Positions 14,684-25,738 of a stretch of DNA of 64,000 nt are shown here, piece after piece. This stretch comes from a virus, in IMG/VR virus record IMGVR_UViG_3300036792_000198, positions 1 to 64,000 of that record; one strand, 5' to 3'. How positions within the stretch are numbered: position 1 is the stretch's first letter; the number at the start of each line of letters is the position of its first letter. The position numbers and the translations under genes were made by a program. The notes below the pieces were generated by a model that was given only the letters and a program-made list of their open reading frames with translations, had not been told where the DNA came from and did no database searches.

Positions 14684-17143
14684 ATGGCGAAGACGAAGGC
14701 AGCCCCTGGCCGTCCGCTGGGGAAGTCACCCGGTGCTGCATCACCAGGGCGCGGCGGCCAGGGGCTGGGGCCTTCCACCGCGCCAGATCCTAGCAGCAGC
14801 CAGGGACGAGCCGGGGGACGACGGCGCGGGTACACGCCGCTGACCCCGATGCGCACGCAGACGGCGAGGCAGCTGAGCCGGCTCGCTGACCGGCTGAAGG
14901 AGTCCGGCCCTGACGTGCCCGCCCACCAGCACGTGCGGGACGCCGCCCGGATGGTCCGCTCGGGCCGGGAGGAGGCCGCGCAACGGCACCTGCGCGCCGC
15001 CCTGTTCTCCCTCACCCCGCAGTCCCTGATGCGGAACGGGCTGCACACCGACGACCAGCACCTGGCCGCCCGGTACGCGATGCACGGCGTCCACCGGCAC
15101 CTGCTGCTCGTCAAGGACATCGCGGACGTGGACGCGAAGAACCAGGAAGCGATCCGCCGCGACTCCTACGACACCGCGACGGCTCAGCCGCAGCGCCCGG
15201 ACCCGAACGCCGGCTACGGGCCGGGCGCGCTCGCGCAGAAGCCAACAGCACGGCAGCCGCCGGGGAACCAGGCGCTCAACGCCCCGGCGGGAACCAGCAG
15301 CGGAGGAAGTGACCCGAACGTGGCAAACCCGGCAGGCCCGCAGCCGCGCGGCAGCAAGCAGTTCACCAGCTGGGACAGCCTCAGCCGGGTCATCGAGCTG
15401 AACTGGGCGAAGTGGGACGCGGGCGAGCGCGGCTCCGCCTCCCGGCAGGCCCACGACACCGCCAGTGCCACGGCCAGGGCAACCGCGCTGCGGGACCGCG
15501 CCACCCAGGTTCACGCCCTGGCCGACGACGCCGAGAGCAAGTTCCCCGGCACCGGCAAGATCATCCACGCTGCCGCTGACGCGTTCAGCCAGGGTGACGC
15601 CGTCACCGCCGGCAACAAGCTGACAGAAGCGCAGACCGCGCTGCAGCAGCACCCGCGCATCAAGGCCGAGGCGAGCCAGCGGCGCCCCCTGTCCCCGGCC
15701 GACCGGGACTTCTCGGCGCTCAACAACCAGATCAAGACGCACATCGGGGCGGCCAGCCAGGCCGCAGCGGGACTAGCCGGCAGCTGGGACGAGCTGTCCG
15801 CCGTGATTGAGCTGGTCGGCCCAAAAGGATGGAGCCACGGCTGGGTGTACCACGGTGTGCCCGGCGGCATGGTGGTACCAGGTAAGCATGACCCGCGTTC
15901 GATCACGGCGGTCGGCGGCGGACGCAAGGACTGGATGAACGAGGCATCGCAGATGCCTGACGCGCGGGCCCGCCATGACTTCCCGGCGATCGCCGGGCGA
16001 ATGCGGCAGATCACCCCGGAACGGCTGCAGCAGGCCCGCAGCGACGCGACGCGGATCTCAAGCGGGATCGCCCCGCTGCACCCGGAGCTGGCCCAGATCT
16101 GGCCGGACGTGTACGGCAAGGCCCCCGGCGGCGGCAAGGCCCTGCCTGTCCCGAAGGCACCACGGAACCGGCCGGACCCGTACTCGGTGACCGGCCTGGA
16201 AAGCCCGCAGGTGTCCTACATCAAGGCAGCGGTCAGGCAGGGCCTGGGCATGGCGAACGAGTACGGGCTGTCCGCTGAGACCGGCCGCCTGGCGGTCACC
16301 CCGGCGCCCAGGGGGAAGCCCGGTGGGCCCGGCCTGTACGACGTCAAGGGCAACATGCACTCGCCGTACATGCAGAACATCGTGAAGGCGCTGATCCGGA
16401 AGGGGCACCCGCCCGGTGAGGCGTACAAGATCGCCTGGGGGTCGATGCGCCGCTGGGCGAAGGGCGGCGGCAACGTGCACCCGGAGGTCCGCGCGGCTGC
16501 CGCCGGCGGGCTCGCCCTGGAGAAGGTCGCCCAGGCGCGCGCCCACGCCCACGCGAACAGCTGGGACGAGCTGGGCGCGGTGATCGAGATGGCCGCGAAC
16601 CCGAACCAGCAGCGCGCCGTGAACGGCGAGTTCGGTTCCGGTGGGCAGGGTGCCCAGCAGCAGCAGGGACAGCAGAAGTCAGCGTCGTCAGCTACCGCCG
16701 GGAAGACCGCCAGCGCCAGCGCCAAGGCGAAGATCGCCCAGTCGCAGCAGTCGAAGCAGGCGCTGCTGTCGCAGGCCGCCGGCTACCAGAAGCAGGCATC
16801 CCAGCTGGAAGCCCAGCGGGCCGTCCTGCAGCAGGAACTGGCGTCGGCCAGCGGCAAGACCAGCAGCGGCCAGTCGGGTTCGACCACGTCCAGCGCCGGA
16901 TCGACCACGTCCAGCGGCGCCTCCACGACCAGCAGCAGCTCCTCGACAACGCCCAGCAGCTCCAGCACGACCAGCAGCAGCACGCCTGCCTCCTCCAGTG
17001 CCGCCGCAACCGCCGCCCCCGGCAGCGCGGCGGCCAGCGCCAGCGCCACCCAGCTGCAATCGCAGATCGACTCGCTGACCACGCAGATCGACGGGCTGCT
17101 GCAGAAGGCAGCCGCTGCGGCCCAGCAGGCAGCCGCGATGTGA
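14684..17143 (+). CDS. large head-module protein A (819 aa), unknown function, Ser/Thr-rich C-terminus
   Basis: Track ORF. Three copies of the SWD(E/S)L..VIE(L/M) motif lie at 15368..15433, 15782..15856 and 16559..16609. A Ser/Thr-rich low-complexity region runs from about 16860 to 17040. Confidence 0.75.
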   Translation: MAKTKAAPGRPLGKSPGAASPGRGGQGLGPSTAPDPSSSQGRAGGRRRGYTPLTPMRTQTARQLSRLADRLKESGPDVPAHQHVRDAARMVRSGREEAAQRHLRAALFSLTPQSLMRNGLHTDDQHLAARYAMHGVHRHLLLVKDIADVDAKNQEAIRRDSYDTATAQPQRPDPNAGYGPGALAQKPTARQPPGNQALNAPAGTSSGGSDPNVANPAGPQPRGSKQFTSWDSLSRVIELNWAKWDAGERGSASRQAHDTASATARATALRDRATQVHALADDAESKFPGTGKIIHAAADAFSQGDAVTAGNKLTEAQTALQQHPRIKAEASQRRPLSPADRDFSALNNQIKTHIGAASQAAAGLAGSWDELSAVIELVGPKGWSHGWVYHGVPGGMVVPGKHDPRSITAVGGGRKDWMNEASQMPDARARHDFPAIAGRMRQITPERLQQARSDATRISSGIAPLHPELAQIWPDVYGKAPGGGKALPVPKAPRNRPDPYSVTGLESPQVSYIKAAVRQGLGMANEYGLSAETGRLAVTPAPRGKPGGPGLYDVKGNMHSPYMQNIVKALIRKGHPPGEAYKIAWGSMRRWAKGGGNVHPEVRAAAAGGLALEKVAQARAHAHANSWDELGAVIEMAANPNQQRAVNGEFGSGGQGAQQQQGQQKSASSATAGKTASASAKAKIAQSQQSKQALLSQAAGYQKQASQLEAQRAVLQQELASASGKTSSGQSGSTTSSAGSTTSSGASTTSSSSSTTPSSSSTTSSSTPASSSAAATAAPGSAAASASATQLQSQIDSLTTQIDGLLQKAAAAAQQAAAM

Positions 17144-17144
17144 G

Positions 17145-24244: not shown

Positions 24245-24289
24245 TACGATGCCGCTAGGACAGTGGGCTGCTGACCGGGGAAGGAACCC
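24245..24289 (+). promoter_or_regulatory. conserved 45 nt element: TAYGAT -10-like hexamer plus leader ending in GGGGAAGGA, copy 1
   Basis: 39 of 45 positions are identical to 47808..47852, by hand alignment. It is immediately followed by a GTG start. Confidence 0.5.
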
Positions 24290-25738
24290 GTGCCGGCGAC
24301 CCTGCTGCCGTCCAGCGTCGAGCTGGTCGGTCCCAAGGGCTACGTGCACGGCTGGCATTATGTCGGCGGAGCCGGCCTTCCCTCGGTAGCGAAGCACAAC
24401 CTGGACCGGCCCAAGGCCGGGAACCTCAAGGCAGGCGACAGGGTCGCCGCCCTCTTCACCCACAAGGGCGCCGCCGGGGCGTTTGGCAGCCCGAACCGCA
24501 AGCTGTCCACCCACCAGGTCATGTCGGTCAGCCACAGCGGCAGCGGCAAGAACCGGCGCACCCACCTGGTCATGCGTGACACCAAGACCGGCGAGACGCA
24601 CAGGCAGTCGCTGCCGTCTCACGCCAAGGTCATCGCCCGCGTCTCCAAGGCGCCCGGCTTCGCCCCGATCAAGAACGGCAGGACGTCGAACCAGTCGTCG
24701 TTCCGGGCGTCCGGAGTAGGGCTCGCGGCACCCGCCACTTCAGATGCGAACGAGGGCCCCGCCATGACACTGGACTTTGCCACCCCCAAGCTCGGCAGCG
24801 GCGACCGCTTCAGGCGCCTCTCGGCCCGGCTCGCCGCACGCGGCGCCCGCAACCCCGACGCCCTTGCGGCCTACATCGGCCGCCGGAAGTACGGTGCCGG
24901 CGGGATGGGGCACCTGTCCCACGGCAAGCACCTTGCCAACAGTGACCTGGGCATCTACCTGGCTGAGACCGCCAAGGACAACCAGGGCATGACGCTGACC
25001 TGCCCTGAGTGCGGGCATACCGGGTCCGCCGGCAGCTTCGGCGCGAGCGGCGCCAGCACCGACTCCCAGCCGGGCGAGCTGCGCACCCCGGCGCCGGACG
25101 TGTCCGGGGTCCGGAACGGCGCCGTGGTGAACATCAGCGGCAAGGCCGCCTCCCATGCCCTGGCCAGCACCAGGCAGGCACTGGAGCTGGCCGCCGTAAC
25201 CGGCCGGCGGCCCATTCACGGCCCGATGGACGTCCTGGTCAAGCGCGGCACCGACGGCACCGCCGTCCTGCACCACCGGCACGGCGGCGCGCAGATCGCC
25301 AGCCTCCGCAAGACCCCCGAGGGCAAGTGGGTCGCCAGCGTCGCCGGCCGGGACATGCAGCCCCGCGACCACCAGCGCACCGCGCTGCTCGAAGCGGTCG
25401 GCGCGTGGAACGGCTCCATCGCCGGCGCCCGGCCGCAGGTCCCGCCGCTGCAGCCGGAGCCGAGGCAAACACCCCTGATGGAGCAGTTCGGCATCCCCGC
25501 GATGCGCAGCGCCGGGTTCGCGACCCCTGTGACCAGCGCCTCTGACGGCCCCCGGGCCACGATGTCGTCAGCGGACGGCGGGGACGGCGACAACACTGAC
25601 GACAACGGGCTCACCCCGCGCGGCCAGGCGATCTACAAGAAGCTCATAGCCAAGGGGTTCCCGCAGGCACGGGCCCTGGCGTTCGCGAAGAACGCGCAGA
25701 AGGCCAAGGCCGGCAAGTTCGGCACGTCGGGAAGCTGA
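24290..25738 (+). CDS. head-module protein E (482 aa), unknown function
   Basis: GTG start. The N-terminus SSVELVGPKGYVHGWHYVGG repeats the motif of protein A. Contains GSGDRFRRLSARLAARGARNPDALAAYIGRRKYG, a segment I recall from phage and plasmid proteins of unknown function. Confidence 0.7.
   Translation: MPATLLPSSVELVGPKGYVHGWHYVGGAGLPSVAKHNLDRPKAGNLKAGDRVAALFTHKGAAGAFGSPNRKLSTHQVMSVSHSGSGKNRRTHLVMRDTKTGETHRQSLPSHAKVIARVSKAPGFAPIKNGRTSNQSSFRASGVGLAAPATSDANEGPAMTLDFATPKLGSGDRFRRLSARLAARGARNPDALAAYIGRRKYGAGGMGHLSHGKHLANSDLGIYLAETAKDNQGMTLTCPECGHTGSAGSFGASGASTDSQPGELRTPAPDVSGVRNGAVVNISGKAASHALASTRQALELAAVTGRRPIHGPMDVLVKRGTDGTAVLHHRHGGAQIASLRKTPEGKWVASVAGRDMQPRDHQRTALLEAVGAWNGSIAGARPQVPPLQPEPRQTPLMEQFGIPAMRSAGFATPVTSASDGPRATMSSADGGDGDNTDDNGLTPRGQAIYKKLIAKGFPQARALAFAKNAQKAKAGKFGTSGS

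Follow-up and report, generated by a model that had tools for sequence, protein, structure and literature searches.

A two-part core-and-tail peptide at module boundaries of five phage head-module proteins, and its possible role as a prohead protease site

The recurrent peptide of proteins A to E, encoded in the 64-kb window (the whole stretch of viral DNA analyzed here), is a two-part signal: a core followed by a tail. The motif is real and confined to A to E, it coincides with module and gene boundaries, and its core is common to A to E and the protein encoded directly downstream, whose AlphaFold model has a prohead-protease fold. We consider the chances about even that the peptide marks leader sites and points of protease cleavage in polyvalent effectors that are packaged in the capsid and probably ejected, with the tail serving as a tag of the mature cargo.

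A core and several tails recur in proteins A to E

The genes for A to E lie between those for the portal and MuF proteins and those for the protease-scaffold and major capsid proteins, as follows.

9100..10500, plus strand: portal protein (phrog_113 portal, E=1e-24), with 0 matches to [IVL]E[LM][GAVN]
13253..13933, plus strand: short stand-alone MuF-like minor head protein (PF04233 Phage_Mu_F, E=1.6e-8), without the core
14684..17143, plus strand: protein A, 819 aa, modular internal-head candidate with three SWD[SE]LxxVIE[LM] cores
17145..19361, plus strand: protein B, 738 aa, DUF7178 and ADP-ribosyltransferase (ART)
19351..22740, plus strand: protein C, 1129 aa, Arr-like ART and three HExxH segments
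22704..23837, plus strand: protein D, 377 aa from the ATG at 22704
24290..25738, plus strand: protein E, 482 aa, E' preceded by a fused N-terminal module of 157 aa
25742..26989, plus strand: 415-aa putative prohead protease (assemblin fold, residues ~19-157) with a helical scaffold-like C-terminal part
27654..28565, plus strand: major capsid protein, 303 aa, no delta domain (PF25209; phrog_1650, E=1e-67), with 0 cores

The ten peptide copies reported in A to E by the initial annotation all translate as quoted there, and their coordinates are right. They are listed below with the spans (wider for A3, B1, and C3) and tail types assigned here.

15368..15433, plus strand: A1, SWDSLSRVIEL + NWAKWDAGERG, type IV
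15782..15856, plus strand: A2, SWDELSAVIEL + VGPKGWSHGWVYHG, type II
16559..16645, plus strand: A3, SWDELGAVIEM + AANPNQQRAVNGEFGSGG, degenerate type III (NPNQQRAVNGEF)
17148..17231, plus strand: B1, extreme N-terminus (residues 2-29), (M)TETLSAQLEL + GWRYNPLERRNAHGEWSR, type III
18252..18356, plus strand: B2, TETITGQLLHL + ASYEGRHIAGTPYTFRHGWILLNP, type I
19486..19554, plus strand: C1, SRQVSEL + GWREEPRGKEGQWQKF, type III-like, immediately ahead of the Arr-like domain
19981..20064, plus strand: C2, TITAQLEL + AHWEGWRDEPRDRHGRWTRG, type III, after the Arr-like domain
21397..21531, plus strand: C3, TLGDQLEL + AWSAAE...RRDYLRDEKGRFAEG, distant type III-like
22935..23033, plus strand: D1, DSLAAQLEL + ASIHGHHIPGTQYTFRHGWIPLIG, type I
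24311..24370, plus strand: E1, near the N-terminus, SSVEL + VGPKGYVHGWHYVGG, type II

The motif patterns are enriched in A to E over 2000 shuffles of these proteins, none of which reached the observed counts. We found [QVS][LIV]E[LM] 8 times (0.36 expected), HG.?W 6 times (0.39 expected), and the composite of [LIV]E[LM] followed by HG.?W within 30 aa 5 times (0.01 expected), with all of these patterns set post hoc, after the data had been seen. All six HG.?W matches fall within 30 aa downstream of a core, and a six-frame translation of the whole window gave no composite outside A to E. The pattern [IVL]E[LM][GAVN], derived solely from the ten listed copies, occurs three times in A, twice each in B, C, and E, and once in D. 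It also occurs three times in the protease-scaffold protein (0.33 expected, P=0.005) and not at all in nine control proteins (~4470 aa, ~1.3 expected); the core was not found in the major capsid, portal, MuF, or tail proteins of the window. Among 30 genes of relative L001, only E' and the protease carry it. A point against the core patterns is that A, V, E, and L abound in a 70% GC proteome. The 25 nt that B2 and D1 were said to share, TACACGTTCCGGCACGGCTGGATCC, are indeed the same at 18321-18345 and 22998-23022, an identity that is only weakly informative (P ~0.03 once the shared peptide YTFRHGWI and the codon usage of the region are taken into account).

The initial annotation had treated the peptide as a single motif, lumping one core with at least three different tails (four with WxxWDAG). 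The core is lineage-specific and consists of phi-[E/D]-[L/M] and then a small residue, within forms of ~8-11 aa, either [ST]x[ST][LI][ST][AG]Q[LI]EL or SWD[ED]LxxVIE[LM]. The 8-11 conserved aa that precede the E exceed the usual length of protease subsites, and such a core could alternatively form an amphipathic helix with a binding role. Three tails serve as the second part: FNPxQPRDxxGRW, VGPxGYIHGWIxVG, and GHHIPGTPYxxRHGWIP. The first two occur widely among IMG/VR viral contigs, over a GC range of 42-76%, and tail types II and III are spread across phage contigs. The HGW/GRW tails form motif families of their own, two of which are widespread among phages, and the initial annotation did not recognize them; none of the three matched an entry in Pfam, NCBIfam, or the PDB, and none was found described in the literature searched.

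Tail HMMs built only from unrelated IMG/VR contigs were searched against 894 six-frame ORF pieces of the window, and the top matches were E1 (36 bits), C2 (19), A2 (10), and B1 (5). For type II, E1 is the best match (36.1 bits, i-E 1.5e-10) and A2 the second best (10.1 bits); for type III, these are C2 (19.0 bits, i-E 2.4e-5) and B1, respectively. The degenerate C3 tail (LRDEKGRFAEG) scores -1.2 bits with the type III HMM and was assigned by eye.

The peptide coincides with module and gene boundaries

A placement of the copies at domain boundaries had been proposed earlier, and it holds: Pfam domains flank copies, and the homology blocks and genes of the A family break at the motif. Protein A has no Pfam match and 692 representatives at E<=1e-3, with homology blocks that break at residues ~240, 365-391, 520-529, and 638. 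Across 150 diverse homologues, blocks and even genes start or end at the motif, specifically at A1, A2, and A3, with tails swapped there and varied modules following the same core. Block-1 homology stops at A1 in 66/341 domains, and relatives continue after this core with type II, type I, block 3, or other modules. Block starts are concentrated at residues 360-379 for A2. At A3, block-3 homology stops, 10/32 A-family representatives terminate within 8 aa of the core, and in L014 the homologous position holds a type I tail. Some A-family proteins end with the core and B and E begin with it, so that the side to which the core belongs is ambiguous.

In protein B, the domains are PF23802 (residues 78-228, E=3e-29) and PF03496 (residues 472-658, E=1.5e-7), and B2 sits 68 aa ahead of the latter, the ART domain. 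Protein C matches PF12120 at residues 68-176 (E=3.8e-4, under the gathering score) and is SprT-like at E=0.047; its HExxH at 22045-22068 is possibly a zincin metallopeptidase, which could do the cutting in place of a prohead protease. The N-terminal ~60 aa of protein D form a stand-alone 68-aa gene in L002, and L013, a homologue of D, has the same motif. E' is a stand-alone ~320-aa gene in most relatives; 196 homologues, mostly ~320 aa, cover only ~65% of E and start (V/M)SASLDLAAPKLGSG. Three further sites in B and E were absent from the initial list.

18063..18125, plus strand: B 307-327, DDSHLVEL/GAEAARSGGKFGS, matching [IVL]E[LM][GAVN]
24761..24823, plus strand: E 158-178, AMTLDF/ATPKLGSGDRFRRLS, at the fusion point of the E1 module and E'
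25169..25204, plus strand: E 294-305, TRQALEL/AAVTG, within E'

The B site is a weak candidate, seen in a single observation. The AMTLDF copy corresponds to the N-terminus of E' in relatives and sits where a low-pLDDT stretch (117-169) gives way to helix 171-183. The TRQALEL site is kept in L001 and L002, at the end of low-pLDDT segment 259-304. Proteins that start with the motif are B, E, E' (~190 homologues), an L011 protein, and a 1107-aa L002 protein.

Copies are conserved in homologous phages, namely in the L002 A-homologue, the L002 ART protein, L008, L013, and L014. The hydrophobic-E-L core described as invariant is valid for this lineage only: other phages have x-K at that position, which would imply a different protease specificity. 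In the L002 ART protein, Q-A-L-A-L and Q-F-L-L-T replace the window's Q-L-E-L, suggesting that the acidic residue is not strictly required. Stand-alone cargo genes of other phages start directly with M(A)FNP.... Upstream of type III tails in IMG/VR, we found portal (12) and MuF (10) neighbors; downstream are toxin and effector domains (ART, Zeta, AAA_33, TopoIB, HNH, and PBECR), with one MuF and no portal. Type I relatives comprise 8 IMG/VR loci, 1 GTDB MAG, and 4 metagenome loci. No cultured relatives for these genes were found by megablast and tblastn against 50,697 phage records. Cultured phages that carry the motif include cluster H mycobacteriophages and Nocardia phage P3.1.

L007 is a 2003-aa portal-MuF-effector fusion with a tail motif between successive domains, and release from the portal would need cutting. 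A pure capsid-targeting tag, another early suggestion, is hard to reconcile with copies inside portal-MuF fusions such as this one.

The protease-scaffold protein carries the core

The protease candidate had been placed immediately downstream of E, and its AlphaFold fold match to assemblin and T4 gp21, with invariant H72, S116, and H137, bears this out. No Pfam, PHROG, or NCBIfam entry matched the 415-aa protein. Its N-terminal domain is modeled with an AF2 pLDDT of ~90, and the top 50 PDB matches of the model are all herpesvirus assemblins or T4 gp21. A further 140 BFVD matches at E<=1e-3 are, where named, mostly prohead protease, HK97 prohead protease, prohead scaffold and peptidase, or protease-scaffold proteins. 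The candidate triad residues are the same in all 40 homologues. Four motif copies beyond the initial list lie in this protein.

25772..25816, plus strand: N-terminal core, NAPAVEL/GNRMWRKK
25949-25966, 26081-26104, and 26144-26161, plus strand: candidate triad H72, S116, and H137, respectively
26195..26239, plus strand: core-like site at the protease/scaffold junction, WQAIEA/ANPEPDSVW
26765..26887, plus strand: two scaffold cores, GHAVEL/ANG (residues 342-350) and DLGVEL/GSP (residues 374-382)

The N-terminal core sits at the edge of the disordered N-terminus (residues 1-18), with A14, V15, E16, L17, and G18 kept in 37-40 of 40 homologues. The junction site, AIEA/A, fits only a relaxed pattern allowing A after E; I155 is conserved in 39/40 homologues and E156, A157, A158, and P160 in 40/40. 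It forms the end of the last protease strand, followed by low-confidence segments 158-162, 164-166, and 170-191. Both scaffold cores are kept in at least 32/40 homologues, one adjoining low-pLDDT residues 342-344 and the other ending helix 355-378. Overall, most of the protease-scaffold and E' sites are kept in at least 90% of 40 homologues, and the sites lie at low-pLDDT edges: at the N-terminus, where the protease domain ends, and ahead of ordered domains. The earlier idea of a maturation-protease site is strengthened by a core at order/disorder boundaries of the protease-scaffold protein that is absent from the nine controls, while the cleavage, the bond cut, the packaging of A to E, and the binding partners of the tails are what we infer.

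Proposed processing and comparison with known systems

In our proposal, phi-[E/D]-[L/M]-small is most likely where the phage's own assemblin-fold prohead serine protease, the domain encoded at 25742-26215 and fused to the scaffold domain, recognizes and cuts its substrates. Inside the procapsid, the protease would trim itself, digest its own scaffold part, and clip the short leaders off the N-termini of B, E, and E'. It would also split A to E into pieces of one domain each (ADP-ribosyltransferases, DUF7178, the metallopeptidase, and others), which may be small enough to exit through the portal with the DNA. The tail would then be the new N-terminus of each released module, a putative tag of mature cargo for head retention/loading or exit that many phage lineages may use, and the core would co-vary with the protease of each lineage. 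Since every module carries the same junction, junctions would double as in-frame module exchange points.

Polyvalent proteins and MuF toxins carry ART, Arr-like, and HExxH-type domains (PMC5512222; PMC5576092), as do the products of the A to E genes. T4 gp21 and phiKZ gp175 cleave the scaffold, internal proteins, and the packaged ART Alt at L/I-x-E and S/A-x-E, respectively, and T4 proteins targeted into the head bear an N-terminal leader, the capsid-targeting sequence, that allows them to be processed by proteolysis (PMC9026906). The leaders of B, E, and E' are similar in length to this T4 sequence. In T4 and phiKZ, the prohead protease cuts its cargo at a short shared motif; the core in our window is instead phi-[E/D]-[L/M].

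The locus and the repeated peptide

The recurrent peptide is carried by five large genes, A to E, which lie in a head module between a small MuF gene and the gene for a 415-aa protein, a protease-scaffold candidate.

Head-module features of the window
9100-10500, + strand: portal (phrog_113)
13253-13933, + strand: short MuF protein, separate and small (PF04233)
14684-25738, + strand: the five large genes A to E
25742-26989, + strand: gene for the 415-aa protein
27058-27636, + strand: 192-aa protein rich in Gly, Thr and Ala, between the protease-scaffold and major capsid protein genes; conserved in the related loci L001 and L002
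27654-28565, + strand: major capsid protein (PF25209, phrog_1650)

Protein B combines DUF7178 with an ADP-ribosyltransferase (ART) domain, and protein C (19351-22740) has a weak Arr-like domain and three HExxH segments. Multi-effector polypeptides such as these, encoded in the head module with portal and MuF genes upstream, have the layout of polyvalent and MuF-type proteins.

Neither megablast of 14684-25738 nor tblastn of E found a close cultured relative among 50,697 GenBank phage records, and the major capsid protein is only ~35% identical to those of Gordonia and Mycobacterium phages. Identical or nearly identical versions of E and the 415-aa protein are present on metagenome contigs of ~124-134 kb. 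Therefore, the window belongs to an uncultured ~125-kb phage group. The window has a GC content of 70%, and the data suggest a coherent group of uncultured ~125-130-kb phages at 70% GC, the hosts of which are probably actinobacteria. Window proteins also have exact matches on a 125,950-bp JGI contig and homologues on many 124-134-kb contigs. At 5925-9533 of L001, upstream of E' (the C-terminal part of E), Mom-like, globin/NAD-binding and DivIVA-like genes stand in place of A to D, so the cargo region is a variable island amid conserved head genes.

B starts one base after the A stop codon (17143/17145) and the first 11 nt of C are also the last 11 nt of B (19351-19361), an arrangement of the sequence that suggests possible translational coupling among cargo genes A, B and C. 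The 192-aa protein had no family match and no similarity to the scaffold of Microcystis phage Mwe-JY05. It occupies the position of the "scaffolding protein" in related phages and may be a decoration or second scaffold protein.

The ten peptides reported in the initial annotation, together with a 25-nt identity between two of them, were found exactly where it had placed them. The pattern [QVS][LIV]E[LM] occurs 8 times in A to E against a mean of 0.36 in 2000 shuffles, HG.?W 6 times against 0.39, and [LIV]E[LM] followed within 30 aa by HG.?W 5 times against 0.01; all three patterns were defined post hoc, and no shuffle reached any of the observed values. The composite pattern has no match outside A to E in a six-frame translation of the 64-kb window. 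The copies are also conserved in relatives. The A homologue of L002 carries WDDVARVIELVGPHGYIHGW, SWDNLARVIELSAQ and SWDDVARVIDMATVIDLFNPDQ, and the ART protein of the same locus opens with TITGQ and contains two copies that read ...TGDGHGHH[IV].(G/E)TP....(S/R)H(G/N)W.PL.

Compared side by side, the copies split into a core and an interchangeable tail. The core has the form SWD[SE]LxxVIE[LM] in A and [ST]x[ST][LI][ST][AG]Q[LI]EL in B, C and D; common to both is phi-[E/D]-[L/M], then a small residue. The E or D is nearly invariant; L002 has Q-A-L-A-L, with no acidic residue. Four types of tail follow the core.

Tail types and the window copies that carry them (letter, protein; number, order of the copy in it)
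Type I: GHH[IV]PGTP[YF]x[YFW]RHGW[IV]P[LV]; copies B2 and D1
Type II: VGP[KHE]GY[IV]HGW[IV]xVG; copies A2 and E1
Type III: [FY]NPx[QE]PRDxxGRW[TS]; copies B1, C1 and C2, with degenerate forms in A3 (NPNQQRAVNGEF) and C3 (LRDEKGRFAEG), both of which were classed by eye and score at noise level with the type III HMM
Type IV: WxxWDAG; copy A1

Cores can be tandemly duplicated before a tail, with two or three phi-E-L-A-T units in a row. This was seen at L221 (IELATVVELATVVELVGP; IELATVVELATVVELVGPKGY) and L002 (VIDMATVIDLFNP; 4647-4700 VIDMATVIDLFNPDQ), and also in P0249, P0277 and P0389, and is reminiscent of the redundant cleavage sites in phiKZ propeptides.

Core sites in the protease-scaffold protein

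The 415-aa protein belongs to no Pfam, PHROG or NCBIfam family even at E<=5. A profile search against PDB sequences gave no match, and there is no sequence similarity to T4 gp21. BLASTP against gp8 of Gordonia phage NancyRae ("capsid maturation protease") was not significant, and a 463-aa protein of phage Mwe-JY05 aligned over the C-terminal 90 aa only. An AlphaFold model based on a 40-sequence alignment has an N-terminal domain (residues 19-157) at pLDDT ~90, a disordered linker (~158-191) and a helical C-terminal part. All of the top 50 Foldseek matches in the PDB are to T4 gp21 or to assemblin proteases of herpesviruses (E from 8e-4, probability 0.80-1.00). BFVD gave 140 structures at E<=1e-3; most of those that carry a name are called "prohead protease," "HK97 family prohead protease" and "prohead scaffold and peptidase." All 40 homologues keep H72, S116 and H137, which have the assemblin order His-Ser-His. 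From the modeled fold, we conclude that the head module encodes a putative prohead serine protease of the gp21/assemblin type fused to a scaffold. The initial annotation had pointed to a protease candidate downstream of E, and this proposal gains support from fold, not from sequence.

The core is also present in this protein. The pattern [IVL]E[LM][GAVN], taken post hoc from the copies of the initial annotation alone, matches A three times, B, C and E twice each, and D once, and it matches the protease-scaffold protein three times against 0.33 expected (P=0.005). Nine control proteins of ~4470 aa have no match, with ~1.3 expected; these are the portal, MuF, 192-aa and major capsid proteins, two proteins of the head-completion region, and a 1465-aa tape-measure-like, a 738-aa and a 638-aa protein.

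Core sites in the protease-scaffold protein
Residues 14-18: PAVEL|GNR, at the edge of the disordered N-terminus
Residues 154-158: AIEA|ANP, at the end of the protease domain; relaxed pattern only
Residues 344-348: HAVEL|ANG, adjoining a low-confidence loop
Residues 377-381: GVEL|GSP, at a helix end

These sites are kept in 32-40 of 40 homologues, most of them in at least 37. The sharing was replicated in L001, where only E' and the protease among 30 genes have the pattern, and partly in L002, where the A homologue, E', the protease and one Mu gp36-like protein match it. One consensus is therefore common to the scaffold/protease and the internal proteins and is not found in the nine control proteins. 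The Mu gp36-like head-completion protein of L002 (18503-19051) carries TDAQLELALYAASN at residue 39. Apart from cargo, E' and protease, no other L002 protein matches the core, and the match may be fortuitous or mark an additional substrate.

Junctions, tails and flanking domains

Protein E (24290-25738) is a fusion of residues 1-157, comprising the E1 tail and a confident beta domain (76-107), with E', which is a separate ~320-aa gene in most of 196 homologues (P0002-P0120 among relatives). The fusion point AMTLDF|ATPK (158-167) is the N-terminus of stand-alone E' in ~190 relatives, (V/M)SASLDLAAPKLGSG. In the model of E, this point ends a disordered stretch and the first helix follows; a second core, RQALEL|AAV (294-305), ends another disordered stretch. 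The AF2 model is uninformative on the E1 tail, as residues 1-70 have pLDDT <40 because the alignment omits them. The E junction contains an in-frame ATG (GPAMTLDF), so E' might be translated separately as well.

With A as the phmmer query, 692 of 1.84 billion representatives matched. The best 150 of 692 were re-aligned locally, giving 341 domains.

Limits of homology blocks along A (residues of A; number of domains out of 341)
Ends at 220-249: 66, near the A1 core (236-240)
Ends at 390-409: 26, near the A2 tail end (391)
Ends at 620-639: 28, near the A3 core (633-637)
Starts at 360-379: 39, near the A2 start (367)
Starts at 520-529: 82, at a further core in relatives (VIEL|SAQTAALE...), eroded in the window

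In 68 diverse representatives, the A1 core is followed by type II (17, plus a few loose matches), by a "TPAPxGKPGGPGLY" block (block 3; 10), by type I (at least 6), by zinc ribbons (3), by type III (1 or 2), or by other sequences. Of 32 representatives compared at A3, 10 terminate no more than 8 aa from the core (for example at ...WDELAAVVELSR, followed by a stop), and among the rest the core is followed by type II in 7, type I in at least 4, type IV in 2 and type III in 1. The core thus separates a conserved part from exchangeable modules at A1 and A3, and does so also between window A3 and L014 and between window A1 and L002.

Gene limits fall at the same places. B, E, E', the L011 protein, the L002 ART protein and the L002 1107-aa protein begin with a core, stand-alone proteins of other phages begin directly with a tail, and L002 encodes the N-terminal domain of D as a gene of its own, 68 aa long, whose stop falls just ahead of the core position. 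Where genes naturally stop and start, the products therefore resemble the pair of fragments that cleavage at the junction would yield. A candidate N-terminal leader of ~10 aa with a putative protease site is seen in B (MTETLSAQLEL, 1-11), E (8-13) and, in relatives, E' ((V/M)SASLDL, 1-7); this holds for N-terminal copies only, and most copies are internal.

Such exchange raises the alternative that the peptide and its DNA are kept as in-frame homology for swapping effector modules, with no processing role of their own. The variety of modules after A1, the breaks of homology blocks exactly at the motif, and the tandem cores of L221 (IELATVVELATVVELVGP) and L002 (VIDMATVIDLFNP) would all follow from it. 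The 25 identical nt of B2 and D1 would also fit, but they have P ~0.03 given the shared peptide and are a weak sign of gene conversion. DNA homology does not explain conservation at the protein level over contigs of 42-76% GC with differing codon usage, and the core is also present in E' and the protease-scaffold protein, which are not modular. We therefore consider this explanation quite unlikely, and exchange is better seen as a result of shared functional junctions.

Tail types II and III are widespread in uncultured phages. The type III DNA pattern N-P-x3-R-D-x2-G-R-W has at least 120 matches in IMG/VR. Among the matches listed, positions left free by the pattern are conserved (Q/E at +3 in 84/84, P at +4 in 45, H/R at +8 in 53, T at +12 in 44), a Gly-rich stretch follows the motif, and the GC of the contigs is 42-76%; in the great majority of the unfiltered matches listed, N-P is preceded by F or Y. 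The type II pattern is found in 84 IMG/VR stretches with 92 distinct copies, often several on one contig and up to ~ten, with V at -1 in 76/87, V/I/L at -4 in 73 and V at +11 in 80. Position -2 before type II tails is K in 50/87 and L in 27/87, so that x-K takes the place of E-L in other lineages. Both types occur on the same contig at L041, L049, L071, L087 and L096. HMMs built from the IMG/VR copies alone have E1 (36 bits), A2, C2 (19 bits) and B1 as their top window matches. Type I is rare, with 8 IMG/VR loci, 1 GTDB MAG and 4 metagenome loci. The single GTDB genome and the four JGI metagenome loci rule out type I as a common prophage feature.

Pfam, NCBIfam and the PDB have no entry that spans the type III motif. 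A profile of 81 type III sequences matched no Pfam family, and its best PDB match, a partial one to Rpb10 at E=0.12, is not a true one; full-length B and C have nothing over the motif in Pfam or NCBIfam. Types I and II, assessed through full-length carrier proteins, likewise had no family match over the motif. Text searches of the open literature, covering the searchable parts of Jamet 2017, Iyer 2017 and Bxa 2024 among others, found no description of the tail motifs. In tblastn searches of GenBank phages, the type I consensus had no match at E<=1, and the type III consensus matched only cluster H mycobacteriophages and Nocardia phage P3.1 (E 0.1-2). We had expected "GYIHGW/HGWIP" to be common in SEA-PHAGES phages, which tblastn of the tail consensuses did not bear out.

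In cluster H phages and P3.1, type III stands at the N-terminus of a basic ~240-aa protein encoded between portal and MuF. In Predator, Damien and P3.1, the gene for the protein starting MSFNPRQPRDRFGRW is followed by a JAB/M67 peptidase gene and then by MuF.

Genes annotated as "capsid/head maturation protease"
L022 (Damien): 5043-5816
L023 (Predator): 5103-5864
L144 (Nocardia phage P3.1): 5992-6702

This annotation looks doubtful for the ~240-aa proteins starting MSFNPRQPRDRFGRW. They are very basic, and two Lys/Arg-rich small proteins precede them.

The nearby JAB/M67 gene of these three phages bears on the idea that another agent processes the junctions: a neighboring JAB/M67 peptidase, the zincin-like metallopeptidase of C (HEMIH, 22045-22068), or Asn-Pro autocleavage in the FNP tail. 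Asn-Pro autocleavage has precedents in FlhB/EscU (NPTH) and reovirus mu1, but Asn-Pro is missing from most window copies.

HExxH segments of C
20875-20898
21136-21159
22045-22068: LHEMIHAV...EEGFTELG

The last segment is kept in C and in its relatives in L002 and L008. It looks zincin-like, but no Pfam model is above threshold, and the SprT-like match is weak (E=0.047, below the cut-off). Metallopeptidase domains are predicted to process polyvalent proteins in the searchable text of Iyer et al. (PMC5512222). The JAB/M67 signature HxHx(6-10)SxxD, on the other hand, does not occur in any frame of the window, and the core common to the protease-scaffold protein points to the prohead protease instead. 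Processing by another agent is in our view very unlikely.

We then consider the domains on either side of the tails. The 400-aa flanks of the IMG/VR type III copies were scanned against Pfam (63 upstream and 90 downstream sequences). Upstream, we found Phage_Mu_F (10), portal families (12), ART-PolyVal (3) and prohead protease S78 (1). Downstream, there were ADPrib_exo_Tox (4), Zeta toxin (3), AAA_33 (3), DUF7178 (2), and topoisomerase IB, HNH, PBECR3, pentapeptide and others, with MuF once and no portal. In 13/93 type III copies, no more than 12 aa separate the motif from the first possible start codon, for example in MAFNPRQPRDRHGRW. The 2003-aa ORF of L007 (985-6993) comprises portal, MuF, a NUDIX-like segment, two ParB-like domains and a Zeta-toxin domain, with type II tails after MuF and between the ParB-like domains and a type I tail before the Zeta-toxin domain. 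In the 1751-aa L011 protein, type III opens the sequence and recurs ahead of the Arr-like and DUF7178 domains; the Zeta domain is preceded by type I. From the flank statistics and these two layouts, the motifs mark borders between head-anchoring and effector parts as well as borders between successive effectors, within proteins of the kind named polyvalent by Iyer et al.

L007 is an extreme portal-anchored polyvalent protein. One IMG/VR protein with a type III tail has an anti-CBASS Acb1 domain upstream of it, and InPase, PBECR2 and PI3/4-kinase-like domains are found in other type III flanks; these fit the idea of packaged anti-defence enzymes that use the same junctions.

A passive structural role, with the core as the last helix upstream and the tail as the first beta-hairpin downstream, or a generic linker that recurs by module duplication, is highly improbable given these flanks: the same tails stand before unrelated ART, Zeta toxin, DUF7178, TopoIB, HNH and helical regions. 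Types I and II do sometimes precede an apparent small beta-barrel (B 405-440; the confident beta domain at E 76-107; the L002 A homologue), and we take the RDxxGRW part to resemble the beta-hairpin turn of YD repeats. However, Gly-rich linkers follow type III tails, the cores lie in low-confidence, probably disordered segments, and conservation over many lineages is far above that of the flanking domains.

Proposed reading and known systems

We favor, at about an even chance, a combined reading in which the copies are prohead-protease cleavage or leader sites of capsid-packaged polyvalent effectors, joined to a tail that acts as a tag. A to E would be packaged into the procapsid, as their position between MuF and the protease-scaffold gene and their polyvalent-type domains suggest. 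The prohead protease would then cut at the core, on the C-terminal side of E as in T4 or of the next residue, L/M/A, in an assemblin-like manner (phi-x-A|small). The N-terminal copies would be short leaders that are removed, cutting would free single effector domains that exit with the DNA, and the tails, N-terminal after the cut, may serve as a tag of mature cargo. Differing protease specificities could explain x-K instead of E-L before tails elsewhere. The weak points of this combined reading are the post hoc patterns, the abundance of A, V, E and L in the proteome, a conserved stretch upstream of the Glu that is long for a protease site, L002 junctions that have no acidic residue, and the x-K of other lineages. 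We also entertain, as a tentative and somewhat doubtful extension, the view of the tails as an N-terminal cargo tag, common to head-carried, ejected proteins over a wide range of phages whose capsid proteases are unrelated. In polyproteins, this tag would be exposed by lineage-specific cleavage just upstream.

The rival explanations are partly compatible with the combined reading, and not all exclude it. One further rival treats core and tail as a targeting or anchoring motif that is not cleaved and that loads the procapsid by binding scaffold, inner shell, portal or MuF, multiple copies per protein raising avidity. The T4 capsid-targeting sequence, the P1 DarB N-terminus and encapsulin cargo-loading peptides, which are usually C-terminal, are cargo-loading signals of this kind. 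Copies at the extreme N-terminus of B, E, E' and many stand-alone IMG/VR proteins (type III within 12 aa of the start in 13/93) agree with targeting, as do a conserved stretch that exceeds a protease subsite, the conservation of types II and III across phages of different protease types, and the same core in the scaffold part of the protease-scaffold protein, as expected of an element that binds shell or scaffold. Yet copies also lie within portal/MuF fusions (L007, L024, L048, L101), which need no targeting, they stand at every domain boundary rather than once per protein, and the core terminates some A-family proteins. No matching partner motif was found in the major capsid protein, portal or MuF. 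We regard targeting without cleavage as unlikely, and targeting as such is compatible with cleavage, since the T4 targeting leader is also cut off.

Phage-injected anti-restriction factors, ADP-ribosyltransferases and toxins act early and are hard to spot by sequence. The defining 2017 papers raise the question of how the loading, cutting and release of polyvalent proteins and MuF toxins come about. The present locus gives a concrete, testable answer for one lineage, with a protease-scaffold gene, a site common to scaffold and cargo, and polyproteins with the core at all domain borders. Two tail motifs are abundant in uncultured phages and mark the border between head-anchoring (portal, MuF) and effector parts. 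If the tails are cargo tags or processing signals, they would provide a handle for cataloguing injected effectors in metagenomes and a tool to package chosen proteins in phage capsids, and they would explain the in-frame shuffling of effector modules. If the tails are a general cargo tag, they would play in phages the part of a secretion signal, a systematic search of sequences alone could reveal injected effectors and anti-defence proteins, and foreign proteins could be loaded into phage heads. If there is no cleavage, the finding remains a set of conserved junction motifs to which no function is assigned.

Among known systems, herpesvirus pUL26 likewise has a protease domain fused to a scaffold, and assemblins are the top PDB fold matches. 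The release and maturation consensus of herpesvirus assemblins is V/L/I-x-A|S, and A-I-E-A|A at the end of the protease domain here fits phi-x-A plus a small residue. Unlike pUL26, the present protein is from a bacteriophage, and its cargo sites have L or M instead of A. Pre-toxin junction motifs, VENN in CdiA and DPxGL in Rhs, are also short conserved peptides that demarcate exchangeable effector domains. In the alternative view of the peptide as a targeting signal, it is similar to encapsulin peptides, which are short and address cargo to an HK97-fold shell. The present peptide has no sequence resemblance to any of these and, unlike them, occurs in many copies per protein, also at N-termini.

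The closest parallels are in phage maturation. T4 cargo has short N-terminal propeptides of 7-65 residues, 7 for Alt, and the packaged ART Alt is trimmed at its ends (PMC9026906). As in the T4 gp21 system, there is a predicted prohead protease of the assemblin fold (Foldseek match to 5jbl) and a very short motif with an invariant Glu (L/I-x-E in T4) that is common to scaffold/core and internal ejected proteins. The distribution of the core, in scaffold, protease and internal proteins and not in shell, portal or tail, is that of T4 gp21 and phiKZ gp175 sites (PMC9026906). Unlike in T4, the protease has no sequence similarity to gp21 and is fused to the scaffold, the core is phi-E-L plus a small residue with 8-11 conserved residues upstream, and the major capsid protein has neither a site nor a delta domain. 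The substrates here are large multi-domain polyproteins with sites at every domain boundary, and conserved tails follow the site, for which nothing similar is described for T4.

In phiKZ, 201phi2-1 and SPN3US, gp175/gp245 acts on an S/A/G-x-E motif in inner-body and ejection proteins (PMC9026906; see also PMC5694885 and PMC10052503). Propeptides of this group have multiple redundant sites, and the motif is conserved in homologous phages (PMC9026906). Our phages are alike in having a minimal Glu motif that recurs in many proteins and is conserved in homologues. They differ in being ~125-kb, 70% GC metagenomic phages whose major capsid protein has its relatives in Gordonia and Mycobacterium siphophages. 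Their consensus also differs and is longer, and the pieces would be recognizable toxin and effector domains.

A to E also resemble polyvalent proteins (Iyer et al. 2017) and MuF toxins (Jamet et al. 2017), which are multi-domain effectors with ART, Zeta, metallopeptidase and nuclease domains. They are encoded beside portal/MuF or fused to them, are predicted to be packaged, injected and processed, and have variable C-terminal domains. The searchable text of both papers describes no junction motif, and in contrast to the metallopeptidase autoprocessing proposed there, the shared core here points to the prohead protease. Unlike in MuF toxins, MuF is here a separate small protein and the effectors are free-standing. 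A prohead-protease site common to scaffold and internal proteins, and N-terminal cargo leaders, are thus already known from T4 and phiKZ-like phages. What is new above all are the conserved tails, two of them widespread, which have no family or structure and go unmentioned in the searchable parts of the papers. Also new are the lineage, a protease-scaffold fusion with no detectable sequence family, the longer phi-E-L consensus, and the placement of the core at every domain boundary of polyvalent effector polyproteins.
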